The notes: generated from the sequence alone by a model not told the origin. 64,000 bases of DNA from Cirrosporium novae-zelandiae (GCA_026023565.1 JAPETS010000007.1:868001-932000), one strand, 5' to 3'. Numbered from the stretch's first letter, positions 1-36,434 are shown. Numbers and translations: made by a program.

Positions 1-88
1 TGTAGATCCTGGGGCTGATAATGAGGGTCCTGGGAGGGAGAGTATTGAGGTTAGGGCTTTGGTGTTGACGCCGGAGGATACTGAGTAG
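1..88 (+). CDS. 3' end of AsaB/CmcJ-like (GA4-desaturase family) oxygenase, partial
   Basis: Frame from nt 2 reads VDPGADNEGPGRESIEVRALVLTPEDTE* (TAG 86-88). RESIEVRALV is the typical C-terminal motif of this family. The rest lies upstream of the window. Confidence 0.65.
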   Translation, partial: VDPGADNEGPGRESIEVRALVLTPEDTE

Positions 89-774
89 AGGGAGTGACGT
101 TTTTGGCTGTTGTTGGATGTTTTTTTCGATTAGACTAAACTCTTTTAGGCATTCGTTTTGTTTTCTAGTTGTCTTAGTTGATGATAATTCATGCTCGTTA
201 TTTTCAAAAAAGCAAGCACCTGAGAGATGAACACTGATACCAGGATGAACAATCACTAGCGCTCTTAGGAATCAAACCCAACCTGGTATTCATGGCATTC
301 AACACTGAGGCGTTATCTATGCTAGTCAGAATATGAGTTTGTAGAAATGATGCAGCCAAGGCTCGTACATGAACCAATAGAATGAACGGAAATCAGATTC
401 ATCAGCAAGCCATCCGGAATCGTTTGCGTCCTTAAGAATAGGTAAGAAAGATGCACCTAAATTTAGGTGCAGCACGTTTGTCTGATAACTTTGTCTGATG
501 TTGACTATTCCAGAGTACGACTGGTATCTCAATCCACCTATGTACTGTACTGTACATTCGTACATGAAGCAAAACTGATGTGCTACTTCAACCCATGCAA
601 TTGCGTTATCCCAACGGTTGACGAACTCCCCAGCTCTCGATTGCGTGCTTAACAGAGAAAAAACGACTAGAGCTGCCAATTTTCACGCTGTAGATAAAGT
701 GCATCCATAGCTACAGTAGATAGGAAGAAATTCGCGATTCTGGATATGATAGTCCTTGTTTTGGGTAAATAAAT

Positions 775-2638
775 ATGGCACAATTCCTGAACCACATATA
801 TAAGAAAGTCTTCTCCACAGTGCACAATAGCAAGGAGAATGTTCCAATAAATGCTAACGACAACAAGAAACGCGTCGCCATAATTGGTGCAGGTGTCAGT
901 GGTGTTGCAGGTGCCGCACATTTAAAAGCCGCAGGGATCGATGTGGTGGTGTTTGAGAGAAATAGCGTTGCCGGTGGGGTTTGGTAGGTGATTTCTCTTT
1001 AATCGTCTTGATTCTTCAAACATTATCTTCTGGAAAGAGTGTAATATAAAACATATGAACTAATAAATTCGGTTGAATAAAGGGTCTTTGACGAGAGAAA
1101 GCCCATCGAGCCACCCTACCCTTCTGTGGATGCTTCTTTACCAGAAAGTGAATATCCTGGTCAATGGGGTGATAATGCCGTAAAAGAAAGTGCGCCTACT
1201 GATGGGTACGATATTGATGAAGTCAATCTTCGGCATGCACCCCCTGGGTTTGTGTGCTCCCCCCTCTGTAAAGTCGTTAATATTGATAATGTGCAAGGCC
1301 TTGCTATGCAAGTCTTATGAATAATATATCCACACCTCTACTACAATTGAAGGTCAACTCGTTCCCACCTAAAACACCTGATTATGTCAACCATAAGGTG
1401 CTGGAAGAATATATTCAGGACACCGCACAAAAAACAGGAGTGGATGAGCTAATTTTATATAATACTAACGTGGATAATGCGGAGAAGGAGGACGGGAAAT
1501 GGTGGCTTTCAACAAGCACATTGAAGAGTGGAAAGAAGGTTGCACAGAATTGGGTTAGTGGACCCTATTTGATTAAGGGTATTGACGATTGATTTCATGG
1601 CTCTTCATATAGAAGTTTGATACGCTCGTCATCGCTTCGGGGCATTATCATGCATGCAATGTCCCTGATATACCCGGATTATCAGAGTGGAAGGCAAGGT
1701 GGCCAGAAAGGATCCAACATTCCAAGGGATACAGAAGACCTCTAGAGTTCAAGGATAAGGTCTGTTTCCTTTCATGGTTCCTGAAGAATGAACCATCTAA
1801 TCTGACACTGGGCTGTATGATGTAGAACGTCCTCCTTATAGGGGCAGGGGTTTCATCGACGGACATTGCTCGAGATGTCGCCCCAATTGCAAATCAGATT
1901 TACCAAGTCTCTCGCAATGGTCCTTTTGACCTACCTGCTAGCTTTCTTCCAGTTGGTGCAACACGCATTGGGGAGATTGCATCATTCGAGAAGCCTCCTG
2001 GAAAGGTAGATAATTCTCTGGCCACTGATCAAGCAATCCCGTCTAGTGTTGCCCTGAAAAATGGCACAAAACTTGAGAATATCCACAACGTTATTGTCTG
2101 CACAGGGTACCACTGTTCTTATCCCTTTCTCCGAACCTACCACAGCAATAAAACTCCCACCGAGCCAGCCTCTGACACCGTCCTCGTGACTGACGGGATC
2201 CAGACACACAATCTCCACAAAGACATTTTTTATATCCCTGATCCAACTCTTGCGTTTATTGGTGTCCCATATTTCACAGCCACTTTCACGCTCTTTGAAT
2301 TCCAGGCCATTGTTCTAGCGGCAATTTTATCCGGGAAGGCGAGTCTTCCAACAGAGGAGGATATGAGGACGGAGTATCGACAGAGGATGGCGGAAAAAGG
2401 GACAGGCAAGGCATTTCACTCCCTAAAGAACCAAGAGGTAGAATATGTGGATCAATTGATGGATTGGATCAACACAGACGGTCGGAAGCTTGGAGTAAAG
2501 CCAATTGAAGGGCATACGAAAGAGTGGCATGAGGCGAATGTTGATAGAATGGAAAAGTTAAGACTGCGAATGGAGGCAAAGAATGGCGATGAGGTTGAGC
2601 GCCTGAATAATTTGGCCAAGGATAGACATATTCTCTGA
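775..2638 (+). CDS. Flavin-containing monooxygenase (FMO-like), multi-exon
   Basis: FAD motif VAIIGAGVSG..AGGVW; FMO motif region ASGHYH..HSKGY; NADPH motif LIGAGVSSTD; VCTGY; DIFYIPDPTLAFIG. First intron 984-1082 (GT..AG), several more follow. Confidence 0.9.
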
Positions 2639-3581
2639 CCAGTAACCGGCCGGTAAATAGTAATTCGTGATTGTTGAGTTGTGCGATGAAGTGTGTGAGC
2701 AGTGTTCGTGTTGGTAGGACCAGAAGCGAGATTAGGGCATGCGCAGTAAGCAGCTTTCAAGGTTCTAACGCCCAGATGATTAGAAGAAACAACTTATCCA
2801 TGTTATATTTCAAGACATAAGATGAAGTCAGCAAAGATTAAAGGTAGTTGTATAACACCTGCTGTGGGAAATTTATAAGTCCGATATATCCTAGTGCAGG
2901 ACAGCTACAGCGAGAACTCGAGAGAGCTCTCGCACTCGATCCTTCGGAGGTTTGCGAAGATTACTCACCTTTCAGTTTCAGGATACATATTTTAGTCACT
3001 CTATGTGTCGTGGATATGGTGTTTTCACCAAAGAGATCCTGAGGAACAGTCTTTCGGACCGGTAAGGCTTGAGCTAAATTCCAACGTTACTGGACCTTTC
3101 TCGTCTCTTTCAGCCTACCCCGCTTTAAATCCTCCTATCATAGCCATCATGGTTGCAGTATTGTGATTGTGAACCATCAATTCATATTCATATTGGTGGT
3201 CTTTCCTTGAATGGTCCCCGGGAGCAAATAATATAAATTCATCAACTACTTATCTGAGCCTGAAATGCCGACCATGCATGTACACCGATGACAAAGCCAG
3301 CCATAAGATGACTGTCTACCTTTCTATGCACATTAGCGTCTTGAGAAGATAGGTATGCATCCAGAATATGGAATGGAAATACGTATGTGGCAGATTTCGG
3401 ATATCATCAAGTACTGTCTCGTCCGATACTTTGCACCTCATAGATATGTTATTCTTGCTAGATTGGAGCTTATGGCTTCCAAGAGATAAAAGGAGCCCAT
3501 CTTCTTTCCCAATTGCTCTTCAAAACATCCAAGTGCTTCATCTTTTTGTCAAAGGACTTGTTTTCCCATCTACTTCCAGCT

Positions 3582-6500
3582 ATGACTGAGCCGATTCCCA
3601 ACGGTCCTCCGGGACTACCCCTCGTAGGAAACGTTTTTGACGTTGACCCTCGCGATTCGCTACTGAGCATAATACACCTCTGCAAGATCTATGGTATGTT
3701 CATCTTGTGAGGCCGAGCGAATATATTGACTTTCAAAGGCCCTGTCTTCAGACTACGCCTCCCAGGCTCGGATGAAATTGTCATTGCTGAGCACAGCCTT
3801 TACGACGAGTTATGCGACGAGAAGCGATTTACTAAAAAGATTGGAGCAAGCTTGGATCAAGTTAGAAATGGGTAAGCATAATATCCTATAACCTGTCGAG
3901 AACGTTTAAGGCATCTGGAAATTAACATGAAAAGGGTTCACGATGGTTTATTCACCGCGTATCCCCATGAACATAATTGGGAGGTTGCCCATCGTATCCT
4001 AGTGCCAGCATTTGGGCCTTTGAGCATCCGTAACATGTTTGATGAAATGCATGATATCTCGATTCAGCTAGTCCTCAAGTGGGCAAGATACGGTGATGAG
4101 AACGTCATCAATGTGACTGATGATTTCACACGACTCACACTAGACTCGATTGCCCTTTGTGCCATGGGTACGAGATTCAATTCGTTCTATACCCAAGAGA
4201 TGAACCCATTTGTGACTGCAATGGTGGACTTTCTCCTTGAATCCGGGAGACGAGGCCTTCGTTCATCTTTTGTCAATTCGTGGATGCGTTCATCAGAGAA
4301 AAAGTACTTTGAAAACATTGAATTGATGCGATCTATGGCGATGAAAATGGTGGAGCACAGAAAGGCCAATCCGAATAACAAGAAAGATCTAGTCAATGCA
4401 ATGCTAAATGGAAAAGATCCCAAGACTGGAGAGAAAATGTCAGATGATAGCATCGCATATAACATGATCACATTTTTGATTGCAGGTAATATCACTAATT
4501 GAAAAACGCCAAGTTATGTCAAGGTGCTAAGCCAATATAGGCCATGAAACCACCAGCGGGACGCTCTCTTTCTTATTTTATCGCCTTTGCAGTGACCCTC
4601 GTATTATGGAAAAGGCCCAGAAGGAAGTCGACGAAGTGGTAGGTAAGGGACCGATCACAGTTGAACATCTTTCCAAATTGCCTTATATAAATGCTTGCTT
4701 GAGAGAGACTTTGCGTCTTACCCCGACAGCCTCCCAGGGCTTCATGAGTGCATGGCCAGAATCCAAGGAGGATCCTATTATCATCGGTGGCAAGTATAGG
4801 GTTGATCACAATCAAACATTCCGACTGGTACTACCTATGATTCATCGAGATCCAAAGGTCTACGGTGACGATGCGGAAGAGTTCAAACCAGAACGCATGC
4901 TGGATGAAAACTTCAAAAAATTGCCAAAGAATGCTTGGAAAGTAAGTACCCGTCAAATATCTTTCTTGAGCGAAATGCTTCTGCCCAGCTTCCTATATAT
5001 TTTGGCAAGGATCATGGCTTATTTGAGTCTAGCCATTTGGAAATGGCCAAAGAGGCTGTATCGGTCGGGATTTTGCTTGGCAGGAAATGCTGCTCTGTAT
5101 TGCGATGCTACTTCAGAATTTTCACTTTCGCCATTATGATCCGAATTACAAATTGTCCATTAGGCAGACGCTCACCATCAAACCGAAGGGGTTCTTCATG
5201 TACGCTAATTTAAGACCCGGTATTGACGTCTCTACCTTGGAGAAAAACCTTAGTAATGCTCAAATGAAACATGAAGCCACACCCCCTTCCACTCCAATCC
5301 GGGGGACTTCTACCGCAAAGAAGCTAATGGCTGTCTTCTTTGGTGGAAACATGGGGACATGCGAAAGTCTGGCTCAAAAGATTGCCCAATCCGCAGCAGA
5401 TCACGGCTATCAAGTTGATATCAAACCTCTTGACGACGCGACTAGTGATCTGCCTAAAGATGTTCCTATTCTAATTATATCATCTAGTTACGAAGGAGAG
5501 CCACCAGACAATGCAGGCCAATTTGTGCACTGGTTGGAAGATCTAAAGTCTTCTGGAACCCTCAAAGGAGTGAAGTATGGCGTTTTTGGATGCGGAAATC
5601 GTGACTGGAAAGCTACCTTCCAGAGAATCCCTAAATTAATTGATTCTCTCCTTGAAGAGAATGGGGGAAAGAGAATTGTCAATAGGGGTCTTGCAGATGC
5701 AGCAGACAACGACATTTTCAATGATTTTGAGAAGTGGGAAGATAACTCCTTCTGGCCTCAGATTTCCAAGTATTTCGGTGAAGTGAAGTCGGAGGGTCCT
5801 GTTGGGTTGGATGTTGAAGTATCTACTACTCTAAGATCATCTCATCTTCGCCAAGATGTCAGGGAAGCTATCGTGCTCAAGAACGAGGTCTTGACATCAT
5901 CTGACGACCCTGCTGCTAAGCGGTATATGGAGCTGAAACTACCAACTGACATGGAATATAGAGCTGGCGATTACTTGGCTGTTTTACCAATCAATACCAG
6001 CAAGACTATCCGACGAGTCTTCAAGCGTTTTGGCCTTCCATGGGATGCCAATATTACGATCAAGTCGGGGGCCACCGTCATCCCAAAGGATAGGCCACTT
6101 CCTCTCCGTGATGTGCTTTCTTCATATGTTGAGCTTTCTCAGCCAGCTACTCGAAAAGTAAGCGTTTCTATTTTCTTCATATTCACAAAATCAAGTTAGT
6201 TTGTTAGACCAGTTCTCGGTTTTGCTTGACAGCCTTGTCAGATGCTACATCTCTGACATTCCTTCCGATGTCATTTCAATGTTATCCTGCTTGAAGCCCC
6301 CCGGAGACAGGTGGTCTGGTATTCTGAACACAAGAAAATATTTTATACAGTTGTCCGTGAGAGCTGTTTCTAATCCCTTTATTTGGCAGAACGTTCGAGT
6401 AATCGTACAGTCGATCCCAGACGAAACAGTTCGCCATGAAGCAGAAAGCCTCGCCGGCGACTCATTCGACTCCGAAATCACAGCCAAGCGCACCAGCGTT

Positions 6501-7265
6501 TTGGACCTCCTCGAAAAATACCCAAGCTCGACTCTTACCATTGGTGATTTCCTCGCTATGCTCCCTCAACTCCGTCTTCGCCAATACTCTATTTCTTCAT
6601 CCCCACTTGTAGATCCGGGCACCGTCTCCATAACTTGGAGCGTTTTGGACGAAGAATCCTACCAACATCAAGGGAAACGTTTTCTAGGCGCAGCCTCGAA
6701 CTACCTGTCAAACCTGGAACCAGGTGACCACGTCCACATCAATGTCAAATCAAGCCACGCATCCTTTCATCTCCCTCTAGACATCGAGAACACTCCTATA
6801 ATTATGATAGCTGCCGGAACAGGCATCGCTCCCTTCCACGGCTTCATCCAAGAGCGTGTCAAGCAAATCGAAGCGGGTCGAACCCTGGCCCCGGCACTCT
6901 TATTCTTCGGCTGCCGCGATCCCAATATCGACCTCCTTTTTTCCACCGAGTTGGATGAATGGTCCAAAAAGGGCGTCGTGGATCCCCGCTACGCCTTCTC
7001 TCGAGCTAACGATAAGTCTAACGGTGCTAAATACGTGCAAGATCGCTTCTGGCAGGACCGAAAAGAGGTTGGAGAGCTGTTTGGAAAGGGGGCCAAGGTC
7101 TATGTGTGCGGGCACTCAAGATGTGTAGAAGGGGTGGCGGAGGCCGGGAAGAGGATGAAGAAAGAGTATGAAGAGAAGGCTGGGAGAAGCATCAATGATG
7201 AGGGTGCTGATGAATGGTTCAGGGCTTTGAGGAATGAGAGGTATATGACTGATGCTTTTGACTAG
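3582..7265 (+). CDS. CYP505: Bifunctional cytochrome P450/NADPH-P450 reductase (P450foxy/BM3-like), multi-exon
   Basis: [29 protein letters not shown], heme motif [11 protein letters not shown] after splicing, flavodoxin [33 protein letters not shown], ends RYMTDAFD*. Confidence 0.95.
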
Positions 7266-7713
7266 TTATTGAAATTGGAAACAGTTGGAGAGTATGTAGG
7301 TAAGGCTTCTTATTAGCCACATTCATTAACTGGATTTTTTTTCCTTCTGATGAGAGAGATAGAGTTATTGTATCATATTAAGTAATTGCTTTCAGTATAA
7401 TTTCGTATCCGGACGATCTTGAAAGAAAATGGCCGGTAGATGCATGCATCGCACATTGAAATTGCACCGCCTAGACAAACCGATAGGAGCAAATTATCTA
7501 CCTAGTTCAGCCCAACTCTTGTCACAGCTACATTTACGATACTAGGCCCATTAGTGGCCATTATCTTTGGTACTAGACTGCATTACCTAGCAAGCACACA
7601 TCGGTCATTGAAAGCCACGTTGATTCGGAAGATGTCGTGCTTGCATTACTCCTCAAAACGTCCATTCGGATTTGGGTTTTTATATCACTTGCTTCATAGC
7701 AGATGTTCAGCTA

Positions 7714-8922
7714 CTAGTGCCACCAATTGGCAGGACTCTTTCTTGCTTGTCTCAGGCTTTGGAGGAGGTTCATGCTTCCGTTGTATTGCAGGCTCTCCAA
7801 AAAGTCATATGGAAGATAATCAGAGACAGTTTCTGTCAAGCCGGCGGCAGTCACAGGTTCATCGAGAGTGATAATATTGTTGTTGTGCAAGTCCGTTTCA
7901 AATCTGCTTCGAATTGTTGGATTGGGTGCCCCTATGTCAAAGGGCTTTAGAAATCCCTCACGGCAGATGGCTGTACTGCTCAATGCTTTCCATTCCGGAG
8001 AGTCTGGCGATTCCCCGTCGCCGACGTCCATCCAGCGAGATACGCAGAGGATCATTTCACGTTCTCTGAGCAACCTCGGAAATGGTCGGGGGTCTGCGAT
8101 GACTTGGAATTGAGAGGCGGGGCGTAGCTCTACGAGATACTCGGACGGACATGAAGGGCAGCGGAATAGAGCACTGCGGTAGCTGTAGTTCTTTGCTTGT
8201 TTCCAATTTCGAGGCAGGTTATCCACTGCCTCAAAGCATGCGTTCAACAAGGGCCATGGTTTAAAGAGATGGTTGCAAGCACACAGATTCTGACCGATAA
8301 CGGCGAGATTTGCTACAGGTCTTTTGGGATCGATCAATGCACAGTTTTGTACTTTCAGGAACAGATGATCGTCGATGATTGAAGCTTTCGTTTCTATCCA
8401 GACATCCTGTCCCCTGTTTTCGACGCAGCTCAGGGCTTTTAGACCTACTCCATAACGCGGGCCGCATCGATAAGCCCTCATGACCAGTTGTATCAGCCAC
8501 CAGTCCAGCTCAAGCGACCAGGAGATACGTGCAGTCTCGCGATGGCGGCAGCATCTTTTGATGTAGTTGAATTTCTTGCTAGCTTGCAGGGTCTCTGCAT
8601 ACTTATATGTTCGCCGTCTCCGATGGAAGATTTTACACGATGAGCATAAAAGATATTTGGGCATGCTTACATCCAGCAGTCTAAGGAAAGCAAGCTTTTC
8701 GGGCCCAGGGTTGCGGAGATTATACCAATATTCATGACCCAATGTGTATGCCATATGACGGCAGGTGAGGGCGAGGGAGGCGGTAGAGATGAATGGTAAA
8801 TACGAAACAATCATATGCCATAACTCGGGTGGTAATTTTTCAAATATGTTGGGTGGGGTGGGAGATATTAATGACTTGATTCCACGAGGGAGCGCACGGC
8901 AGAAATTAAGGCAGCACGCCAT
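7714..8922 (-). CDS. F-box domain protein
   Basis: 402-aa single ORF; N-terminal FEKLPPELWHMIVSYLP..SLALTCR F-box; CxxC..FH and C-terminal RCPSCPSEY/RWMDVGDGESPDSPEW typical of fungal F-box families. Confidence 0.85.
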   Translation of the reverse strand: MACCLNFCRALPRGIKSLISPTPPNIFEKLPPELWHMIVSYLPFISTASLALTCRHMAYTLGHEYWYNLRNPGPEKLAFLRLLDVSMPKYLLCSSCKIFHRRRRTYKYAETLQASKKFNYIKRCCRHRETARISWSLELDWWLIQLVMRAYRCGPRYGVGLKALSCVENRGQDVWIETKASIIDDHLFLKVQNCALIDPKRPVANLAVIGQNLCACNHLFKPWPLLNACFEAVDNLPRNWKQAKNYSYRSALFRCPSCPSEYLVELRPASQFQVIADPRPFPRLLREREMILCVSRWMDVGDGESPDSPEWKALSSTAICREGFLKPFDIGAPNPTIRSRFETDLHNNNIITLDEPVTAAGLTETVSDYLPYDFLESLQYNGSMNLLQSLRQARKSPANWWH

Positions 8923-8973
8923 CGAGAGAGATGGACATGTAACTAGAAATCCATCATACTTGTAGATATAAAA

Positions 8974-8993
8974 TGTGTGTGTGTGTGTGTGTG
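8974..8993. repeat. (TG)n microsatellite
   Basis: About 10 TG units just upstream of the F-box start. Confidence 0.85.
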
Positions 8994-9399
8994 TTCTGGA
9001 AAAGATGGAATGACCAGCGAGCTATGGTTTAACAAAATATGGTAGCTAAAAGCTGTTGGGCTATATGTGGCCATGGGTAGCATTAAATATATTCTAGTTC
9101 CTGCACCTAATCAATCGTACAGGCCCACGTTGTCACGTGAACGCCCCGATAAAGGACACCCCCAATGAACTTCACGAACCATGAACGACACCTCTGAAAC
9201 AGAGAAATGTCACTGTGTCATGCTATATTAAAGCCAATCAATTTGGCTCCGATTTGTGGAGACAGGTGAAACCGATTGGATACATGGGGGAATTAGGAAC
9301 GTGAACACAGTTTTCTTTCATATGACTCGGTTTGATTATACTTCATGTGTTGTCATGCAAGACAAGCAAGGCCATGACCCATAAGTGAGAGGAATAAGA

Positions 9400-17643: not shown

Positions 17644-20002
17644 TCAGCTGGATCTCGTCGCATACCCCATTTCCATCGGTGTATCGTCAAAATCAGAATC
17701 ACCTGAAGCGGCAATGGGAGGATCCCAAGTAACCTCCACAGCTTGATGAGGCTTGTTACAAACTTCGCCCTCCTTCGTCTCTAGCTGAAACTTAATATCC
17801 GCCGGTCCCAAAATAACCCTAATATTGAACTCCGCAAATATATATTTCTGTCCCCGATTGTACCAGTGCCTGTTCCTAGGTTTCATACCGATGGACCCTT
17901 TGAGCTTATATTCGATGTCGCAGAGGCTCCTAACGCCATTTTGCTTTAAGCTACGTGGAAGCTGGTCGCGCTGCAGTTCTGACGTCACGAGGGCGAATTT
18001 TCGGGGCCGGCCCTCCTCGCCTGCGGCTATTTTCAAGCCGTATGGCTTACAAATGCCATGAATAGAGATGCTTTGGCCCTGATTTTGTACACGGGTCATT
18101 AATAAATATTCGTTGACGGAATTAGATGCGTGGGGGCAACTTACCTGCTTAATGAACCAGTCGATTTGGTCATTAGCCCACATCTTTCTATCGCGAGGAT
18201 CGCAGATTACGTCGTCACCTATGTGTCTTAATCGATCATAAGGTTCACGGCAAATAACGCCGTAGCTCATGCGAGAACACCGTTCGTCGAAAACTACTGT
18301 GTTTTGATTAATTTCCTGGACACGACTCATTACGAGGCCGTTGACGACCGCGAGCTGCCTGTTTTATATTTTAGCGTGGCGATCTCATGCTCCCCACTGG
18401 ATCGAAACTGCTTACGGCTGCTCCGCGAGAATAATACGCATGTTTTGGGTGTTTGGCCACTTCGTCTCCAGCTTGTAGTATGAGTTGAGCTGTTTCCTAA
18501 CATACTCCGAGCTTCCAAGCCCGCCGGACACGACCAAATGTGTCTTGTATACGCGTTAGCTATACGTCGTAGATAGGACAGACATCAAAGCTACTGACAA
18601 TTTTTTCTGAAGGATGAATTTTCTCCATCTTTTCAATTTGTTCATTTATGAGATTGATCATCTTTTTGACTAGGCCGTCAAATATTCGTTCCAGGTCTTC
18701 GCTAAATAAAGGCTCAGTAAGTGGTTCACATCTTTTAGGAATAACGAGCTTACCGGTTTATCATCAGTTTCGAATTCCTAATTCCGAGGTCTAGATAATC
18801 GCATTCTGGAGAAAGCCCAGGGATTGGGAGAAATAGAGTGGGGACGTTCGATGCCGGGTCGCCAAAAGAACACTTGAACCGTTCAAATGGACCTTGCATC
18901 ATTTTTTCTGCGCATTCTCTAAGTTCTTCTTCTGTATGAAGGAAATTTGGGATCGTTTTCAGTTGTTTCATAATCAATTTTGTAACTCGCATATTGATAA
19001 ATGCAGAGCCTATCGGGCGCCCTTTATACATTTCAGTTCCAACACATCTTCCCACTATAGCAATTTGTTAAGAGGTACTGACCTTCAACCCAAATTAACT
19101 GCTTCAGGCGTGTAGGATTTTCCGGCAAAGAAATCACCTTTAGGACATTTACATCCTGGCCAACTGTTCCAGTAAATTAATCTAGCTTTGGTCTGAGTTA
19201 ACATACCGTAGTGCCTCCACCAGCGTCACAAACCAGCATAACATCGTCCTTCTGCATGTATAATGTCAGATAGTAGGCAAAAATAGTCTGGTTCCTGAAT
19301 TTATTTCTATAGAGAATTGGCTTACCTGAAGCTGTTGGTTGGAGACATATACCGCAGCAGCTTCTGCCTCAGTCAGTCCAATGTTAAAACGATGCATATC
19401 CCCATCTCCACCAAACCCAGCTCTTTCAATGATATCCTCTAGATCGTTCATCATGCCTGCGGATTTCCATGTCGTTGGAACACTAAAAATGAATTCCACA
19501 ACCTGGTATCTCCATTCTGAGAACCTATCATCGAAAAACTTTTCGATATGGCTATGGATGCAAGAAATATAATCTTCAAACGCGCGTCTTGCATCTTTAG
19601 TGCTCATGTGGCCCGCATCTTCGTCCCGGTATTGAGGATCAAGATGCAGCTTGAAAAGCTCTTTGATGTCAAACTCCTCGTCATCTTGAATAGGTTCACA
19701 AAGAAAACCCCATGTTTTTATGTTTCTCGAATTTCCATAATATGCTATGGCGGTAGGAACCTTGTTGACGGTTTCGTACACAAGTTTCCCAGGCCAGTGT
19801 TGGATTGGTTTAGGATGAGACCAGTCCCGAGCCCTTGAATATGCAACGGCTGGTAAACATCAGAAGAGAAGTCAGTGAAAACGATTGGGCTATATAGAGA
19901 GCTATATCAATACAGACCTGTTTGTGTCATGCCGAAATCAATACCAATCACAATGGCAGGGATACCATCGTTCCCGCCCTCCAAACCCGCAAAGTCTGCC
20001 AT
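17644..20002 (-). CDS. Atypical Hsp70 (HSPA12-like actin-fold ATPase), multi-exon
   Basis: IVIGIDFGMTQT, QHWPG, KVPTAIAY, FIFSVPTTW, LTEAEAAAVY, LVCDAGGGTT, IGSAFIN, FERFKCSFG, VVSGGLGSSEYV, SYGVIC..IDWFIKQ; introns restore the frame. Confidence 0.9.
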
Positions 20003-20905
20003 TGCTATTGCCGCTTCTCTAGTTTAAAAACTGGTATTGTGGTTGTTATCCCGTACGTAATTTAGGAGCGGCTTCGATTTTAGAAATTTGTATGGAGTCT
20101 AATTGTCTATTGCAGCAACATTTGACTTCTCCTTAGCAGCATCTGATATGACGGTGTCCCCGTTTATGTTTAATGAGGCAGGAATCTGGTATAACAATTA
20201 TTTCCTGGTTGAATCCTTAGAGACGGTCTGACAATTGGCCTAAAGACGTTAGCTAGGAGCATTAAGCCCTAAAACGGCAGATCTCACATGTTACTTATAT
20301 CGAATCACATCGATACTACCAACCAAACCCAACTGCTGCGGACTAGATAGAAGTTTAGTTTAATAGGAAGATCGAAGACGTGTACCTTGTCCCACCAAGG
20401 GTACTTGAAATCTACTGAGCCTTGCGGGGATTTTAACTGTTCTTGAAAATCAACCTTTAGTGACTGGAACTTTATATCGCGAGCCTTGCCTTCGGTAGGC
20501 TATCGGGTTGAAGTCTCGGAGTTTTTCGCGATTTAGCGAATATGCCCTTTTTGCTCGGTGGTGGCAGTAGTCTAATCTTTTGAACATTTATTGAACAGGG
20601 GTTTGCCAAATGAAGTCCCGTCTACGCAGCTGACCGTCGTTTTCAGCTTCAGCCCATAGCTGAGTCTGGGCCAATGACGATTTAAAAAAAATCAAGTATT
20701 CCCATAGAGCCAAAGAATGCATTATTACAAGGTTCTATGATACTATTGAGTTACCATCTGTGATTGTGTTGGCGTTTTTTGTCACATTCTTCTAAAATAT
20801 TAGGCTGAAGCTGCATATAAATATAAACTTGGCTGTGGGTGTGTTTATCCTTAGACCAAAAGTCTCCAAAGTAAAACGGTTTCAACATCCACCACCTTCA
20901 CAGCT

Positions 20906-22252
20906 ATGGCAACTACCTTCACCACCATATTTACAGGTACAACTACAGCCACAACTACAACCACACTTAAAATTACAATTACAACCACACCTATAACTAC
21001 ATCTTCATCTACAGTTACAACCGCATCTACAGCTGCAACTCCGACTAACAGTACACCTCAAAAAGGATCTTATACACCCCTTCCAGCTAGAACCGTCGCT
21101 GGTATTGTCATTGGCACGGCAATTGGTCTCGCTTTCATCACATTCGTTGCAACTTATATGTGGATGAGGTGTCGTTCAAACCGTCGTCAAGAGTTCGATT
21201 CCACACACGCCCTTCAGCATCGACCAAACCGACCACACAATACCTCTACCGCATCCTCTCATAGCACCTCAGGACAAGGTGACTTCAATTTCCTCCCACC
21301 AACCATAGAAGATCGGGCTATTAGCAATAAAGTCTGGACTCTTCTAGAGCAGATCTCACTGCACGTTGAGAACTTCTACTCTGATTCCATACAAGATGTA
21401 ATGACCACAGCAGCAAAAGCAGAACTGGCTGCAAGATTCAACTCCCCATATCTCCCTAAACCAGTTGAGGCATTGCTGGAAAGTGCACGACACCCAAGTG
21501 TTGTCATTGAGCATTGTCTTTGTTTCGATATCCTCCGTGCCATTTCTCCCTCATCGGATCCAGGTTTTTCATTCCTTCCTCGAGAATTCGTCCTATTGCC
21601 CAGCCAGATGAAAGATATCAAGAACCCAAGCGAAAGAAGCATAGGTATGTAAATCTACACGTTCACTTGACCAATTATCACAATATCCAATCAGTCTAAA
21701 GGGGTCGATTCCTCACCACTCATACTGAAGGCCCAGCCAACCACACAGTATCAATACCCAAATAAAGTTTTCCACTTGACATGACACAACCCGTCCTCAA
21801 CCACTAACATCAAAATATCCCCAGCACAACGATCTCTTGCCCTCTCCAGTTGGCGGACCCTGAGCGTCTATCTTCGTCCACAACCTTTCAACGATCGCAC
21901 CTACCTTACCTTCCTTGACGAGGCCATAGAACAGGCGGTCCAGTCCGCCTCGCTCGCCTTCGCCGCTTTTCAGAATCACCGCCACAAGAGCGAAGATCGC
22001 ATTTACAACCTCACTGAAATCATGAAGAGCGCCGCCGAGATCGGAGTACTGTTGTTTTCACAGCCAAACGGGTTTTTGTGGGAATGGGGGACAGCTGGCA
22101 ATAGGGAGGATGGAGGGACCTCGAGAGATAGTAGACAGTCGACGGTGATGATGGTAGTTGTGAGTCCGAGCTTGGTCAAGGAAACGGACGAGAAAGGGAG
22201 AAAGGTGGACAAAAAGATTGTGTTGGTTGAAAAGGTTCGAAGGAGAATTTAA
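20906..22252 (+). CDS. Single-pass membrane protein with Thr/Ser-rich N-terminus and conserved helical/beta C-terminal domain
   Basis: Thr-rich start; TM segment VAGIVIGTAIGLAFITFVATYMWM; intron 21645-21824; exon 2 SWRTLSVYL..NLTEIMKSAAEIGVLLFSQP..VVVSPSLVKETDEKG..VLVEKV, stop 22252. Confidence 0.85.
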
Positions 22253-22729
22253 GGGAATATTTAGATGGCAGCAATCTTAGACCTGACGTTAATATTTTAT
22301 CTCACCTAAATCAGCTATTCTCACCCCTTGGAGTTTTTCATTATAATATTTTACACGATACGAGTTTTGCAATCGTTACACAGGAGCTGTATAATGTCTG
22401 TACCTTCTAGCACTCCATTCGTGATGGCTATCCTTGAACCTCGATGCGCCGAAGATAGGGTCTGTCATCTTGACAATGCGCAACGCTTAAGTGCTGTACG
22501 TGCTTTAAAGCCTACTGTGTAGAGTACAGTAAATATCTGCAGCTCGGACGGAACGGGCCCTTTGTTTCTAGGCCTTTAACTCTCTACTTAAGTACCTAGA
22601 TAAGGTACATAATCTAGCAGAGTTTTCGCACGATAATGCAGTACCCCGGTACGAAGCTGATCAAAAAAGAGGCGCCCACAAATTTGATTCCTAAGATATT
22701 GATTGGTTCACAATTTCTTAAAATAATTA

Positions 22730-22912
22730 CCTGTTGACCTGTCCTCGGATGGCTACCTCTAGTAGGGGTGTCATGTAAAGATTAATTAAGCAGAATCAGC
22801 TATCCATTTCTTTGCTGAATTAATTATTGAGCCTCAAGATCTTATCATTGGACCAATTGACCTTATAGCGTTACCCCTCTGCTAGCGGTAGCCATCCGAC
22901 GACATTTCAGGT
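22730..22912. mobile_element. MITE family B, degenerate copy
   Basis: Imperfect TIRs TGTCCTCGGATGGCTACCTCTAG / CTAGCGGTAGCCATCCGACGACA; core TTGAGCCTCAAGATCTTATCATTGGACCAAT shared with the copies at 25849 and 57535. Confidence 0.8.
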
Positions 22913-23229
22913 GATGCTTGTGTCGTGATGGAACTCATGCATGTATTAACTACCCCTGGTACAATTATTGTGTGAGGAAAATGCTGAGAACCTTTTTGAG
23001 AGTGAGTGTGTCCCCACACATCGAACAACCAACGCATGGACCTGCTGCTTCTAACTCACAGCTAGCCTCTTTAGACCCTTGAGAGCCTTGCCAGTCTCAG
23101 CTATCACAATATTCTGGAAACTTATTGAAGCGATCGTTCCTTTTGCATCGTTGGGCAACCCTCATCGCTATGGACGATTCTGTCCGTATTCTCCTGTTCT
23201 ATTGATGCCCTAGAGTACTTATGGTTTCC

Positions 23230-24225
23230 TTATGAGGCATTCAGAATCGAAGGAGGATCTGATTTGGATATTTCCATCTTTACTGGAGCGCAGAAGAAAT
23301 TATTGATAATGGTGGTATTGGAAGAATGCTCGTATTTTTGTGAAGCAGATTCTCCATTTGGATATTGGGTTTCGGAGTTTTCGCTGCTCTTGGTATGTTG
23401 TCGGCATTTCCATCCCCGTCGCCAGATTCGGAGGCTCTCGAGATCATCCTTAGACGAAGAGTCCGGGGTAAGCTCTGATGGCCCTTTTGAGACTCTTGGA
23501 GAAGCAATTTCAGTACCGTTATCCGTGTCCATTGACTTAGACCTGACCGCAATCATTAATGGGGGTTCACCAGCTGTTGCTGTACTTATAGAGGGAGACA
23601 TAAGGCTGGTAGCTGAAGAAATAGCTTCTTCTTCAATACATGTCCTCCCCTGTACCCCCCTTCTGCCGTTAGTGAGATCATTCTTGCTCTTTTTCTTTGC
23701 AGAGCGCTTCCAAGTCAATAGCTCGTTCTCTTGGTAGACTGGCGGCGGACCCCACATTTCCCCTCTTATGGCCGCATCACCAACGATGCTCCCTTGTTTG
23801 ATATAAAGCGTATTGATCACAGTTCCTAGGGAATTTGCGCAAATTCCCAACCTCCTATGTTTGTCCGCGATTATGTCGGAATCTCTGAAAACCCAGAGTG
23901 CCCTATTTCGGATGCTCATGCCCCCATTCATAGTCTGCATATCCACTCTTGCGGGTTCAATGACTCTCATAATGTTGCGAACGGCAGCCGTCGTATCGGA
24001 TATCACAAAGTCGATCCATTTGCATTCATCCTCCGTAAGGATGGTCGTTTTCAGGCTCCGAAGGCGCAGGGCCTCGTGAATTTGGTGTTCGATAGTCCCT
24101 GTAGTGGAGATGAGGTCGGCGGTTTGTTCAGATGCTGCCTTGAGAGCAAAAGTGATTTCAAAGAGCTTAATTGTGACATTGACTGCTGGGCCCACACCAG
24201 ATATGATATGTGTTATAGGGTCCAT
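23230..24225 (-). CDS. Hypothetical protein with fungal STAND-N/SesA-like helical N-terminus and low-complexity tail
   Basis: Long ORF; MDPITHIISGVGPAV.. start followed by amphipathic helices and RNRALWVFRD..KHRRL, resembling N-terminal helical domains of fungal NLRs. Start chosen at MDP (24225). Confidence 0.7.
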   Translation of the reverse strand: MDPITHIISGVGPAVNVTIKLFEITFALKAASEQTADLISTTGTIEHQIHEALRLRSLKTTILTEDECKWIDFVISDTTAAVRNIMRVIEPARVDMQTMNGGMSIRNRALWVFRDSDIIADKHRRLGICANSLGTVINTLYIKQGSIVGDAAIRGEMWGPPPVYQENELLTWKRSAKKKSKNDLTNGRRGVQGRTCIEEEAISSATSLMSPSISTATAGEPPLMIAVRSKSMDTDNGTEIASPRVSKGPSELTPDSSSKDDLESLRIWRRGWKCRQHTKSSENSETQYPNGESASQKYEHSSNTTIINNFFCAPVKMEISKSDPPSILNAS

Positions 24226-31563: not shown

Positions 31564-33822
31564 TCATATCAACCATAGTTCCGCTCTACTCTTGTTTCGA
31601 CTTTCTTGCCATGCAGTCTTTTTTAGTTCTGTCATGCCCCAACGGCTAAACTGGCCGCTTCCCTCATCCTTCAAGAGCATGAACGGTCCATACGCGCTTA
31701 GAGATAGAAGTTCCCATGTGATTGCGTCGTCCAGTAGCTTCTGGCAGAAGTCGTCTTTATCGTCATTACCAGTGGTTAGATAGGAGCCTGAACCACCACA
31801 AGACGGATAGAGTTGCCAGCGAGTCTGATTTTTATCTCTTTTCACATAGAATGAGTCAAAATGGCGCTCGATTTTTGCCTTCGTTAACCAGCCTTTGATT
31901 CTTAGTCTTCCGCTCATCGAACCTTGTGTGCGTAAGATAGTTGCAGCATTCTCCCAGCTATCCCAAGGCCACAGCCGTCCTTCAGCATCCTCTACATTAA
32001 TCTCGATATCATTAGGCGTATCCCACGGTGGCTCTAAGCTCCAGGAAACTTCCCCTGTCCAGCCCAGCCACGTCCACGAAGGGAACATCCACCGTCGATT
32101 TGCTCCTCTCTTTTTTAAGGAGCCCGGTTTGTGATGCCAATTCAACGCACCTGCAAACACACCATTGGCCCCAAGGTGTTTTGGAGTGTAGTCAATCTCT
32201 CCACCAGCATGTCCTCTTGACTGTAGTATTTTAAGTGGAAACGCGCATGAATCTTGAATAGGAAGTCCGTAGAACTGATGAGCCCCTGGTTGAAGTCTCT
32301 GTAAACGTTGGAATATCCCCAAAATGGCGTTGAGAGCATCCTCCTCGTAAGTAACGTTCCTGCTGCTAAATTCTTCAATCTGGAGACTGATGTCCAAACG
32401 CATGCCCATGGGATCATCAGAACTTTCTAGCACCGGAGAGATGAGGATGTTGCTATCATGTTGAAACTGCTCAATATCGACATCAGGAGGATGATCAAAG
32501 ATCTCTGTGAAAAGAGATTCCTTGCATTCGAACACGACTTGATGGTCCGTAAAATACAAACGTCGTTTGGGGAACGCTGACTCTTGGTAAGTCCAACCTC
32601 GCGTTATCCATGTTGAGCGGCGGATAGTGTAAACCGGATTTGGAAGCGTAGAACGTAAAGTAATTCCCTTGATACTGATGCTAGGTTGGTGAATCCGTGG
32701 CCGAGAACTGACTCCAGGAAGCCCAAAGGAGGAGTCATCGCCCACTGCAGCAACTATCACCAAAGTACAGCATTCGTAGATCTGATCCATGCATAGTATC
32801 TGCAATTTTTTCTCTGACGGGTTATCTTGATCTATGCAGTACTTGTCAATCCAAAGGTATTTGAAACCTAACCGACGGACGACTTCCATAGCGTCCCTAA
32901 CCACCAATGGAAGAGAGTCGGGCATCATCACTATCGCATCTCGCTTGATAGGGCCAGGACTACATTCCTGGGTGCGACCCCAAACATAGCTCAACGCCAA
33001 ATATTGGCAGTGAAGTGGAGTTCTAACGATCTCTCCAGTATCACAATCGACAACTTTCAGGCAAGGTGGCGTCTCAAAGGAAGGCACGTTACACATCCCC
33101 TCGTGGTGGTTGGTACAAATGCTAAGCCATGTAGCTAGAAGGTCGTACGGGATCTGGTTTGGCACAACCTGCCTGACTCCGAGGGTCCAGGGTGCTCTCT
33201 TTTTCTTCTTTTTCTTCCTTTTATTCTTCCTTTCTCCAACGCTAGAATATATGTTTTTGGTCTCAGAAGCAGAAGCAACCATACCCGCCCTATACCAGCA
33301 ATGATGCTTCGTCCCGGGATTACCATCGGGCAACTCATCAGAATGGAGCTTTGGCGCAAGGCCAAGCATCATCTGATCCTGCAGCCCATCAACGTTCTCC
33401 TTCCTAGGTTGATTCACCCCTAGGTAGGCATCCGAAGCGGTCATCGCCAGAAGTTGGAATGGTCGCAATTCAAAAGCTCTAAGCGGGAAAGAGTGCAGGT
33501 TTTGATCTAGAACGCAGTCGCATGTTGCGTCGGTCTGCGGGCCAAGCGCCATGCTACCGAAAAACCGGCAAAGTGGGCAGGAGGATATTTCTATAGTCTT
33601 AATATCCTCGAGATCCTGAACGACATAGTATTCATAACCCCGTGACGCTGCTTTCCGGTGTTTTGCCGATATAGCTGCGAAGTCGAAGTTCTGGCAGCGT
33701 GGGCAGAGCTCATGTGGCTCGGGATCTATCGTTGCATTTTTGGGAGCCTCTTCGGAGTCTGTTATAGAGATGTTGCTGATGCCTTGAATGTCTTCAAGAT
33801 TAGGACTCGTGTTTTTTGCCAT
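31564..33822 (-). CDS. Heterokaryon incompatibility (HET) domain protein
   Basis: YLALSYVWG, LPLVVRDA, YLWIDKYCIDQ, MDQIYE, WITRGWTYQE, DALNAILGI, FPSWTWLGW; N-terminal CPRC/CPLC; intronless. Start may lie up to 33885. Confidence 0.93.
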   Translation of the reverse strand: MAKNTSPNLEDIQGISNISITDSEEAPKNATIDPEPHELCPRCQNFDFAAISAKHRKAASRGYEYYVVQDLEDIKTIEISSCPLCRFFGSMALGPQTDATCDCVLDQNLHSFPLRAFELRPFQLLAMTASDAYLGVNQPRKENVDGLQDQMMLGLAPKLHSDELPDGNPGTKHHCWYRAGMVASASETKNIYSSVGERKNKRKKKKKKRAPWTLGVRQVVPNQIPYDLLATWLSICTNHHEGMCNVPSFETPPCLKVVDCDTGEIVRTPLHCQYLALSYVWGRTQECSPGPIKRDAIVMMPDSLPLVVRDAMEVVRRLGFKYLWIDKYCIDQDNPSEKKLQILCMDQIYECCTLVIVAAVGDDSSFGLPGVSSRPRIHQPSISIKGITLRSTLPNPVYTIRRSTWITRGWTYQESAFPKRRLYFTDHQVVFECKESLFTEIFDHPPDVDIEQFQHDSNILISPVLESSDDPMGMRLDISLQIEEFSSRNVTYEEDALNAILGIFQRLQRLQPGAHQFYGLPIQDSCAFPLKILQSRGHAGGEIDYTPKHLGANGVFAGALNWHHKPGSLKKRGANRRWMFPSWTWLGWTGEVSWSLEPPWDTPNDIEINVEDAEGRLWPWDSWENAATILRTQGSMSGRLRIKGWLTKAKIERHFDSFYVKRDKNQTRWQLYPSCGGSGSYLTTGNDDKDDFCQKLLDDAITWELLSLSAYGPFMLLKDEGSGQFSRWGMTELKKTAWQESRNKSRAELWLI

Positions 33823-36434
33823 GACACAGATCCTCGTGTTTTGGAACTCCCCTAGGATAAGCAGTCTCTTTGTAGTCCTAAGCAAGATGTCTCGCTCTTA
33901 TCTCTGTCTTCCCTAGTCACTGCCAAGAGAGCTCATCCACATGAATGCCACACATCAGCCTTCTATTTGTCCTAACGAATGTTACTTCCACATGAAAGAC
34001 GAGGAGAGAGGCGAGAGGTTTCAGCTGAGCTAAGTGCTGGTGTGTGGGTGTCCACAGTGAGGTGGCCTTGTAGTCTTGTAGTCTCTGCTTGTTGGCGCTA
34101 AGGGAAATAGCAGGCAAATTAGATGGATCATTTTTGAATGTTGATTTCAATTGTAGCGCAATTCTTTGGTGTAGTTCTTACTAGTGGCCATTTGCGAACA
34201 CAAGGCTGTTCTCGGAGAAGCATACGGAGGCTTGATTTGCGAGAAGACAGACAGCAAAAATTGAGGCTAGGCAGCAATATTGAGAAATCGCGGGGTGTTC
34301 TCTTGATAGTGGGTCCCCGTAGATCCAATTCAAACTTATGGATTCTACAATCTACCCCACTCTTCATCCAACAACTTTAGTAGGTAGCGGTTGTTTGACT
34401 TGATATTGAAGTTGCAATTCTGAACACACAAGCGGCAAGGTGGGGATACCCTAATCATCATCGCCTGGACTTGACGATGAGACAAACAGCAGCCTAGTGG
34501 GTTCGAAAGCTATGAGAACTACGTTGGGAGAATCAAGAGAAAAAGGCAAAGGAAATGGGATTGAAAGGGGGAACTTGAGCAGGAGAGTGGGCAACTAGCG
34601 CCTAACCACATAGAGGCCTCACTATATAAAAATTTTGTCTCTTAATACCATAGTGTATACACAAGGGTTCATTGAGTATTAGACATCGATATTTTATTAT
34701 GTGTGCACCATGTTATCGCTATTTGTTGTCTTGAGGCGTCGATATATTTATTGAAATTTACTCGCAACCACTTTCGGTGCATCAATTCAATAATTACGTA
34801 CTATGGGAAAAAGAATCCTCTTAGTACTGGTTATATTTCTTAGGTCGAAAGTATTACAGTGCCATCATGAATTCATCATCATCTGAAGCTTCGGACTCTC
34901 TAAAGACTAGGATCAGGAATCGGGAATCCCGCTCTGTTGCTTTATTCCCGTAGCCTATAGCAGATCCCATCTTTAGGGAAATGAATGTAAGGGTAGTAAG
35001 GATCTTGGATGGTGGCTGGTGGGTGGCTGCATGTTTTTGGCCATGTTTGCGACCTGCTTGCGACCTGGGTGTTGGAAACGGGTTTGTTTGTTGTTGTATT
35101 TGATTTCCGGTAGGTATATTGGAATATTACAGGATGAATTTACGGGTCTTCCTAGGGAAGAGAGGAGTCGTAACGGCGTCGATCGGTCGGAAGGGGTGTT
35201 TGAGATTCTTGTAGGGAAGGACGTGTCATAATATTCAAGAATGCAGCTTTTTTTTATCTTTGTTTTTATGATATTGCTGAGACCAGGTATTTAAATGGCT
35301 TTAATTCAATAGGAGCTCCCTTAAATATTGATTATTATATCGGTGAATTGGTGGATGCCACAGAGCATTAGGATGAGGTTAAAATAAAATGCTAAGCTAA
35401 CATGTAGCCTAAAGATCAAGAAAGGTGGAAAGTGGCAAAGAGACTCATAGGATATATCAATTCAACACTAATCACGACGAGAAGAACAACGGGAGATTCA
35501 TAATTCTGTATTGAGGAATATCATTCTTGCCTTTGCTTTGTTCTTGTAGTGATAACGTGAAGCGGACACCAAGCTGGTTAACTACAGGTTCTGCAGGAAC
35601 TCGATCGTTTGAAATAATCGTATATCAAAAATGACTCCTCATGTGTTCACCAGCATCTATATGGACAGGGATGCTTGACGATCAAAGCAGGGCACAGTAT
35701 TTAACCAGGGTGTCCCATCCTGAAATAACAACAAGCAAACATAGTGCAACCAATGATCTCTTGAGATGAACAATGCGATGACTAAAAACACATTCTAGGT
35801 TGTGGTCGACTGGGGGATCTATCGAACTTCGGAAAATTATTCCATGGTCAACATCGAATGGTTAGCAAAATAAGACATGTTCGATATGTCGTTAAAAGTG
35901 AAATCCGGAGAGGAAGTATATCTAGCATATATCAATATGAAGAAGACGAGAATTGAGAATGTGAATACATGTAGTCCTCCTTCCTTTGGATGTTGTTACC
36001 TGCCAAGAGACAAAAGGAGACCAGATGTCTAAATAATTCTGGTAGGCAATTGAGTTTACTAAAAAGGCATGAGCACGAATATTCAGCATTGTATTGTCTA
36101 TCTAGAGTAAAAATAGAGACTATATTATATGTAAAAGGCGATAACCCTAAGAGGCGCATCGCGCCCGTGTCATGTTAGAGCCAATGAGATTGTATTCCTG
36201 CTATTTGATTATCGATGAACTTTTTAGATATTGGAGCAACCGTGTCAAGTTGGACGATTTATTTTTTCCAGCAAGCTGCAGGCTCCCTTCATACGTTAGT
36301 CTATCACATATATTATAAGATAGGCGATCTTTCTTTGTCTTCCAAAATCCGTAGCGAGACGTTCGGGATAGGATCAAAACTTCTTAATCATTTAGCAATT
36401 CAACCCTTTCACTCTAGTTTCTATAATTCCAAAA

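Follow-up and report, generated by a model that had tools for sequence, protein, structure and literature searches.

This locus raises the question of whether an atypical Hsp70-like ATPase of a filamentous fungus has a partner of its own, encoded next door. The window, the whole stretch of 64,000 nucleotides analysed here, comes from Cirrosporium novae-zelandiae (GCA_026023565.1 JAPETS010000007.1:868001-932000), whose class is Xylobotryomycetes. Between 17644 and 24225 it holds three genes: A, which by its motifs encodes a distant member of the Hsp70 superfamily of actin-fold ATPases; B, divergent from A, which encodes a single-pass membrane protein; and C, convergent on B, whose product begins with a modelled helical bundle. 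The trio is a conserved three-gene cluster of filamentous ascomycetes (Pezizomycotina), and in a modelled complex the cytosolic domain of B is predicted to bind the nucleotide-binding domain (NBD) of A across lobes I and II. We consider it on the whole probable that A has in B a dedicated partner, tethered to the membrane, and in C an accessory, the three genes making up a unit that acts at the membrane.

A three-gene cluster of filamentous ascomycetes

At NCBI the two central genes have identical counterparts among the hypothetical proteins of the Cirrosporium novae-zelandiae metagenome-assembled genome (locus tags M1834_008919 and M1834_008920), and spliced B is exactly the protein P0001, 388 aa, terminating in ...VVVSPSLVKETDEKGRKVDKKIVLVEKVRRRI. 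A preliminary description of this stretch, made from its sequence alone, had the coordinates, the strands, the spacer of about 900 bp and the C-terminal peptide of B all right. The genes and the spacer are as follows, with positions counted from the first nucleotide of the window.

17647..20002, minus strand: gene A, a multi-exon coding sequence (stop 17644-17646, ATG 20002); the hand-read exons equal P0002, 635 aa, letter for letter
19022..19054, minus strand: 33 nt that are coding in the database model of A (11-aa insert VGRCVGTEMYK), found by reading the sequence and aligning homologs
20003..20905, no strand: divergent intergenic region of A and B, 903 bp between the two ATGs, presumed to be a shared promoter
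20906..21644, plus strand: gene B exon 1, residues 1-246 and the first base of codon 247, identical to P0001
21645..21824, plus strand: intron of B, 180 nt, GTATGT...CTAAC...AG (GT at 21645, AG at 21823-21824); its removal yields P0001
21825..22249, plus strand: gene B exon 2, residues 247-388, identical to P0001 (stop 22250-22252)
23233..24225, minus strand: gene C, a single open frame of 331 aa, convergent on B, read as an open reading frame (ORF) and with homologs in related loci

One detail of the database model of A calls for correction. The insert VGRCVGTEMYK in P0002 is missing from 24 of 24 aligned homologs and starts exactly at an exon start, and an AG 33 nt later would restore the family consensus VE-GRPIGS. 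The annotated 3' splice site is for these reasons probably wrong, and 19022..19054 is probably intron sequence.

Metagenome contigs were scanned with a 9-sequence alignment of B, which gave 26 loci whose B is 30-44% identical to that of the window, and homologs of A and C were sought in these by tblastn. A locus counts as testable for A when it has at least 2.3 kb upstream of B, and for C when it has at least 2.4 kb downstream; 15 loci are testable for A, the other 11 having less than 900 bp upstream of B. An A homolog lies upstream of B, on the opposite strand, in 14 of the 15, and a C homolog lies downstream of B in all 12 loci testable for C. When loci whose B genes are at least 90% identical in DNA are grouped, A is found in 12 of 12 lineages and C in 9 of 9. 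The gap from the start of A to the first match of B is 0.7-2.0 kb in 13 of the 14 A-bearing loci, and 5.1 kb in locus L008. Compared with L007, L008 has an insertion of about 3.1 kb (5212-8298) within the A-B spacer, the two contigs being otherwise 92-99% identical, so the head-to-head pair is sometimes separated.

Locus tags give support that is independent of the metagenome loci. Thirty B-family representatives were looked up, 17 of them NCBI-named, and tag adjacency was checked against 120 listed relatives of A; the 10 named B genomes that fall outside those listed relatives were left out of the tag count. The tags of A and B follow directly on one another in all 5 named cases that could be checked:

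Xylographa soralifera: A-B tags MMC17_004481/2
Bacidia gigantensis: A-B tags KY384_007960/1
Bacidia gigantensis, second A-B pair: KY384_002388/9
Polytolypa hystricis: A-B tags AJ80_02009/10
Meristemomyces frigidus: A-B tags LTR08_002761/2

With the window genome included, A-B pairs span Xylobotryomycetes, Lecanoromycetes, Eurotiomycetes and Dothideomycetes, distantly related fungi that include both moulds and lichen formers. In Diplodia corticola, outside the tag count, the A and B proteins come from contigs of one and the same length (748,166). Because Bacidia gigantensis has at least two separate pairs, it would appear that the A-B module duplicates as a unit. A midpoint-rooted tree was built of 84 full-length relatives of A, 560 to 700 aa in length. 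Copies linked to B are found on either side of the root, and linkage of A and B is therefore probably ancestral to the sampled A family. The genes of the preliminary description thus form a recurrent module, the trio in the metagenome loci and the A-B pair in the locus tags, and so regular an arrangement goes well beyond chance.

Predicted binding of B to the ATPase

All the motifs of an actin-fold ATPase (phosphate-1, connect/catalytic Glu, phosphate-2, adenosine) are present in A. The motifs GIDFGMT (residue 20, phosphate-1), LTEAEAAAV (187), DAGGGTTD (212, phosphate-2) and VVSGGLGSS (381, adenosine) are family-invariant, and residues D22, E189/E191, D212, G214-T218 and G384-G385 do not vary across 25 family members. 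A profile of this 25-sequence family matches the NBD of DnaK (1dkg_D) at E=1.5e-4 and mortalin at 8.5e-4, while the scores of the single sequence all lie under the curated cut-offs (NCBIfam HscA, E=1.6e-8, where the cut-off is hundreds of bits; Pfam HSP70, E=0.039). This combination points to a distant member of the Hsp70 superfamily, and the motifs and the profile match agree with the "atypical Hsp70" of the preliminary description. Against full-length DnaK (2kho_A) the profile match spans positions 178-386 only. The last 190 or so residues of A have no sequence match, a canonical substrate-binding domain being undetectable by sequence, and this region after the NBD is conserved in the A family. 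The family comprises 519 matches at E<=1e-3 among 1001 candidates. The pointers to an HSPA12-type label for A are the database names of its relatives ("Hsp70 family protein" or "actin-like ATPase domain-containing protein") and PF27033, a precomputed family found on about 47 of the 120 listed relatives.

B runs from a Ser/Thr-rich N-terminus through one transmembrane helix, a basic stretch and a disordered linker to a conserved domain of about 260 residues, whose conserved motifs are LPxxxDD...LHVENFY, WRxLTAYL, LFSQPxxFxW and VVxPxxVKxxDExGxxL. An AlphaFold2 model made with a 55-sequence alignment has a mean predicted local distance difference test score (pLDDT) of 82 and a predicted template modelling score (pTM) of 0.70, with most of residues 130-388 above 90. 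The domain is modelled as eight helices followed by five strands; exon 2 contributes helices 243-263, 271-291 and 302-325 and strands 329-333, 356-360, 362-367, 373-381 and 384-387. The segments encoded by exon 1 are these.

20906..21085, plus strand: B residues 1-60, Thr/Ser-rich and predicted disordered (pLDDT about 50), presumed extracellular stalk
21086..21178, plus strand: B residues 61-91, the single transmembrane helix of the model, followed by basic RCRSNRR
21278..21644, plus strand: B residues 125-246, first part of the cytosolic domain (pLDDT >90, conserved), including the LPxxxDD...LHVENFY helix (LHVENFY at 152)

The complex of A (635 aa) with B residues 125-388 was modelled in three runs with three controls, no alignments being used. 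It scores 0.76 in each of the three runs, and the best of the three controls scores 0.26. Of 78 solved complexes, 51 reach the mark applied to this score, as do 2 of 108 mismatched pairs; in a eukaryote benchmark the same mark is reached by 39 of 65 solved pairs without a like older complex, against 2 of 126 unrelated pairs. The A-B runs have at least 93% of their contacts in common, with a partner pLDDT of at least 83. No relative of B has a solved structure, so recall of a known complex is an unlikely source of this score.

On B the predicted contacts are at 128-156 (the LHVENFY helix, the chief contact with A), 300-315, 328 and 365-378, the last being a hairpin in the C-terminal beta-stretch that the preliminary description had already singled out. 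On A they are at 37-57, 297-317 and 338, which includes two patches taken from the interface of the complex model:

19764..19826, minus strand: A residues 37-57 (DWSHPKPIQHWPGKLVYETVN), predicted B-contact patch 1, just past the phosphate-1 motif
18831..18893, minus strand: A residues 297-317 (GPFERFKCSFGDPASNVPTLF), predicted B-contact patch 2

The interface residues of B are more conserved than the remainder of its domain (0.542 vs 0.411, permutation p=0.0012). Residues 297-317 of A align to about 264-281 of DnaK (HMMER alignment to 1dkg_D), which would place them in subdomain IIB. Residues 37-57 stand as far behind the phosphate-1 loop as the DnaK segment with loop 28-33 does, a loop required for GrpE binding.

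The position of these contacts bears on a different account of the cluster, in which B is the client rather than the partner. A would then be a dedicated chaperone that folds, assembles or extracts B, or a complex nucleated by B, C would send B to ubiquitin-dependent turnover by way of a conserved PPxY motif, and the linkage would be that of a chaperone with its sole substrate. Such an arrangement could produce the same linkage and the same predicted binding, it gives a use to the PPxY motif, and the conserved region of about 190 aa past the NBD of A could hold a client. The contact on A is predicted, however, on the lobes of the NBD (37-57, 297-317) and not in the C-terminal domain where Hsp70 clients bind, and the surface that B presents is a folded, conserved face (pLDDT >90) rather than an extended peptide. 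We think a client relationship unlikely, though it deserves to be kept in mind.

Several points weigh against B as the dedicated partner of A. The binding is predicted by model confidence, in models made without alignments, and 7 of 44 blind-drawn neighbour genes also pass the complex test. The interface residues of A are no more conserved than the rest of the protein (0.632 vs 0.637, p=0.53) or than the NBD only (0.664, p=0.76), which somewhat weakens the case, though A is conserved throughout; and the assignment of A 37-57 to a subdomain depends on motif offsets and on the domain boundaries of DnaK. The suggested role of C depends on a four-residue motif. Among the loci, L022 is the sole testable one without A (none within 9.4 kb, 1-9372). 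From 600 bp upstream of B onward L022 is 98.7% identical to L006, which has A at 6664-8962; further upstream it is ORF-poor and has 1.2-kb inverted repeats at 85% identity, and we take the missing A as a candidate insertion or rearrangement. The listed A and B copies of Aspergillus navahoensis are on different contigs, and the orientation of C with respect to B varies: 5 loci have the two genes on one strand, and C converges on B in the other 7 as well as in the window. Finally, none of 15 A-B spacers contains a three-unit heat-shock element or an Rlm1 site, and the words that spacers share are not convincing: the commonest 7-mers turn up in 9 of 13 spacers, where shuffled controls get as high as 9, and the commonest 8-mer in 7, where they get as high as 6. 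There is thus no sign of classical stress (heat-shock) regulation.

Some of these points fit a plainer account, in which A, B and C are merely co-regulated from a bidirectional promoter, perhaps within a common pathway, and their products do not touch, the complex model being a false positive. The ordinary conservation of the A interface agrees with this, as do the seven passing neighbour genes, not all of which will be true binders. The arrangement has nevertheless been kept across four fungal classes and in several paralogous copies, the four mismatched pairs at or above the mark scored 0.34-0.59, far short of the 0.76 of A and B, and the contact residues of B are its most conserved. Mere co-regulation is in our view distinctly unlikely.

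The membrane protein, the third protein and their possible relatives

The family of B is large: an exhaustive phmmer search finds 755 cluster representatives at E<=1e-3, 352 of them at E<=1e-10. Its single-pass character, proposed in the preliminary description, agrees with the one transmembrane helix of the model, and 44 of 55 family members align over this segment. The stretch ahead of it is 62 aa with 53% Ser+Thr in the window protein, and has a median length of 96 aa and a median of 41% Ser+Thr in the family; the 12 residues that follow the segment carry a median of 4.5 Lys+Arg. Basic residues flank the cytosolic side of a transmembrane helix (the positive-inside rule), and we infer from the basic stretch that the C-terminal domain of B lies in the cytosol and the stalk outside, where it is probably O-glycosylated. 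The "Thr-rich external stalk" of the preliminary description thus holds good as to composition, Ser included, while its external side is owed to the positive-inside rule.

B (P0001) has no Pfam family match, and a phmmer search of the PDB returned nothing relevant, GrpE included. Pfam matches in the B family at E<=10 are confined to the transmembrane and juxtamembrane part (TM_ErbB1 in 18 of 55 members, Podoplanin in 9, Syndecan in 5, Mid2 in 4). PADLOC has no match for A, B or C, and NCBIfam none for B or C.

The C-terminal domain of B had been likened to GrpE, the nucleotide-exchange factor of DnaK, and taken literally this would make it a divergent GrpE homolog. Like GrpE, it has helices and then a small C-terminal beta-sheet, and it is predicted to bind an NBD. 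P0001, however, has no match to GrpE (PF01025) at E<=0.1 or at E<=10, GrpE is outside the 25 most-matched of the 58 families hit by the 55 B members at E<=10, and the Foldseek and VIA result lists for B, which show no clear match of any kind, are free of GrpE chains. Homology of B to GrpE lacks support, and we regard it as very improbable. What survives of the earlier picture, an Hsp70 with its own membrane-tethered exchange factor, is the predicted binding of A and B (0.76 vs 0.26 for the best control); the relation to GrpE does not.

The other family that had been named, MIEAP/SPATA18, gives a lead. In the ESM Atlas the first structural neighbour of the B domain beyond its own family clusters (template modelling scores 0.73-0.80) is a MIEAP cluster (PF16026), mostly molluscan. 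Its score against the B model is 0.49 by query and 0.39 by target, with 186 residues aligned over 129-388, which is under the bar of the tool. The MIEAP guess of the preliminary description was nevertheless not a random one. P0001 has no match to PF16026, and PF16026 is outside the 25 most-matched families of the 55 members at E<=10, with the proviso that the HMMER filters discard most very weak matches, so that remote homology to PF16026 could escape. MIEAP differs from B further in that B is membrane-anchored, whereas MIEAP is, in the available part of one account, a soluble, condensate-forming animal protein (PMC10845071). An unlikely but consequential idea is that the B domain and the animal MIEAP domain are truly homologous, though very distantly, and that HSPA12-type ATPases and MIEAP-type domains form an ancient, opisthokont-wide pair; the fungal cluster would then keep side by side, as genes, two partners that work together in animals too. 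According to the accessible text of a 2026 review, bivalves show a massive expansion of HSPA12 genes (PMC13580251). In the literature searched, as far as its available text goes, no paper covers MIEAP together with HSPA12, and the papers with both SPATA18 and HSPA12 are gene lists.

The N-terminal conserved domain of C, about 145 aa, is modelled as a helical bundle (helices 4-58, 65-97, 105-114 and 116-142). Mean pLDDT is 55 for the whole protein and 77-95 across residues 31-90. Beyond the bundle come a PPxY motif, a basic patch and a disordered tail, and [PL]PxY is kept in 8 of the 9 aligned C sequences that cover the site.

23734..23745, minus strand: C residues 161-164, PPVY, the conserved PPxY motif in the C-family alignment

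C had earlier been called STAND-N/SesA-like. An N-terminal helical bundle is what the SesA, PigL_N and HeLo N-termini of STAND proteins share with C, and the ESM Atlas feature scores of C to PigL_N-bearing clusters are 0.86-0.88, below the bar of 0.9. Of 11 members of the C family tested against PF17107, PF17111 and PF14479, however, none matches PigL_N or SesA and one matches HeLo at E=0.095, under the threshold. C is also unfused to an NTPase and has, unlike these domains, the PPxY motif and the disordered tail. Fold searches with C return generic helical bundles only, and the earlier label is not confirmed.

A curious coincidence may be recorded here. Weak Foldseek rows for the C model (residues 30-145, about 23791-24138 in the window) land on the alpha-helical lid of the DnaK substrate-binding domain (for example 1dkx, 3dpo, 4r5k and 4jnf, E 0.14-0.8). 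HSPA12-type proteins are said to be without a lid. We take the likeness as a coincidence and not as evidence.

A third account makes the trio a conflict system for an immune-like or non-self response, with B as the surface sensor, A as an NTP-driven switch and C as a HeLo/SesA-type helical executioner that attacks membranes once released. Prokaryotic conflict systems that recruit HSP70 and GrpE have been described in a paper whose accessible text does not treat the fungal trio (PMC7159879). We hold a conflict system to be rather unlikely.

The HET and F-box genes nearby had been offered as context for the unit. Neither recurs beside the trio. From 5 to 36 kb the window has 102 ORFs of at least 70 aa, and matches in related loci are confined to the ORFs of A, B and C with their antisense shadows; the two genes are for that reason best seen as bystanders. 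HET, F-box and NB-ARC neighbours were all rejected as members of the unit. The two neighbours, both found by domain search, are these.

31567-33897, minus strand: HET-domain ORF, E=9e-35
7717-9021, minus strand: F-box ORF

Two further places in the window stand apart from the trio. At 60371-63998 (plus strand) a DUF676/alpha-beta-hydrolase ORF is directly followed by an NB-ARC ORF that runs off the end of the window, which, judged by its domains, is an NLR-like gene with a lipase-type N-terminal domain. At 3882-7262 (plus strand) successive ORFs with P450, flavodoxin, FAD-binding and NAD-binding domains look like an intron-split, self-sufficient P450-reductase fusion gene.

A probable membrane-tethered partner, its known analogues and its meaning

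If B is the dedicated partner of A, the unit may work as follows. The two genes diverge from a common spacer of 0.7-1.3 kb. A would be a cytosolic ATPase of the Hsp70 superfamily with the catalytic motifs of the actin fold. B would sit in the membrane with a glycosylated stalk outside and its 260-residue alpha/beta domain in the cytosol, docked on the NBD of A so as to bridge A 37-57, after the phosphate-1 loop, and A 297-317 of lobe IIB. Gripping both lobes that flank the nucleotide cleft, B would keep A at the membrane and would probably govern its ADP/ATP cycle from the position of an exchange factor. GrpE, BAG and related factors act on canonical Hsp70s from the same side. Because B would sit where exchange factors act, we would call it a functional analogue of a membrane-tethered co-chaperone and no GrpE homolog. 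PPxY is the classical ligand of the WW domains of Rsp5/NEDD4 ligases, and C, as a soluble protein, would most simply be an accessory adaptor through which a WW-domain ubiquitin ligase of the Rsp5/NEDD4 type reaches the A-B pair. The physiological input may be the state of the surface or the cell wall.

Known systems resemble the unit in part. GrpE binds lobes IB and IIB of Hsp70, and B is likewise predicted on an Hsp70-type NBD through helices and a C-terminal beta element, with contacts at a lobe-I element by the phosphate-1 loop and at lobe IIB; unlike GrpE, it is anchored in the membrane with an outer Ser/Thr stalk, and it has no relation to GrpE in sequence, nor one that stands out in the fold searches. 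Compared by description and by database names, A is like HSPA12A/B in having an NBD of the Hsp70 superfamily, no canonical lid detectable by sequence and many paralogs; no B-like partner of HSPA12 is described in the literature searched. In Tim44 with mitochondrial Hsp70, and in Sec63 with BiP, a membrane protein likewise positions an Hsp70-family ATPase through a dedicated binding domain, but B has neither a J domain nor the Tim44 fold, and the partners of Tim44 and Sec63 are canonical Hsp70s. We know of no clustering of the Tim44/mtHsp70 or Sec63/BiP gene pairs.

The Mid2/Wsc sensors share with B the Ser/Thr-rich outer stalk, the one transmembrane helix and, given the topology that we infer, the cytosolic C-terminus. 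Their cytosolic tails are short and unstructured, whereas the tail of B is a folded domain of 260 residues. Mid2 (PF04478) matches over the stalk and transmembrane segment occur in 4 of 55 B members at E<=10 (best E=0.036; P0001 at 0.78, with 9.9 bits against a cut-off of 23.2), and the threshold is reached by none of the 55.

In the literature searched, supplements excluded, there is no description of the trio, of the B family or of the C family, in keeping with the earlier statement that no functional description of such a fungal module was known. A survey of Ascomycota Hsp70s covers, in its accessible text, seven yeast-type subfamilies only (PMC3879978). An Hsp70-family ATPase with a dedicated membrane-bound partner is a known principle; new are the B partner family, the third gene and the conserved clustering.

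In the accessible text of the 2026 review, the function of HSPA12 is called unknown, and atypical Hsp70s of the HSPA12 kind appear without a known mechanism or partner (PMC13580251). The trio offers a concrete candidate partner and a likely site of action, the membrane facing the cell surface. It also defines B as a large unnamed family with a confidently modelled fold and no solved relative, and C as a further family, one that carries a ubiquitin-ligase docking motif. Should the MIEAP lead prove true, the MIEAP-type domain would be the missing regulator of the nucleotide cycle of HSPA12, or its membrane or organelle anchor; both orphan families would gain a mechanism, and the result would extend into animal biology.

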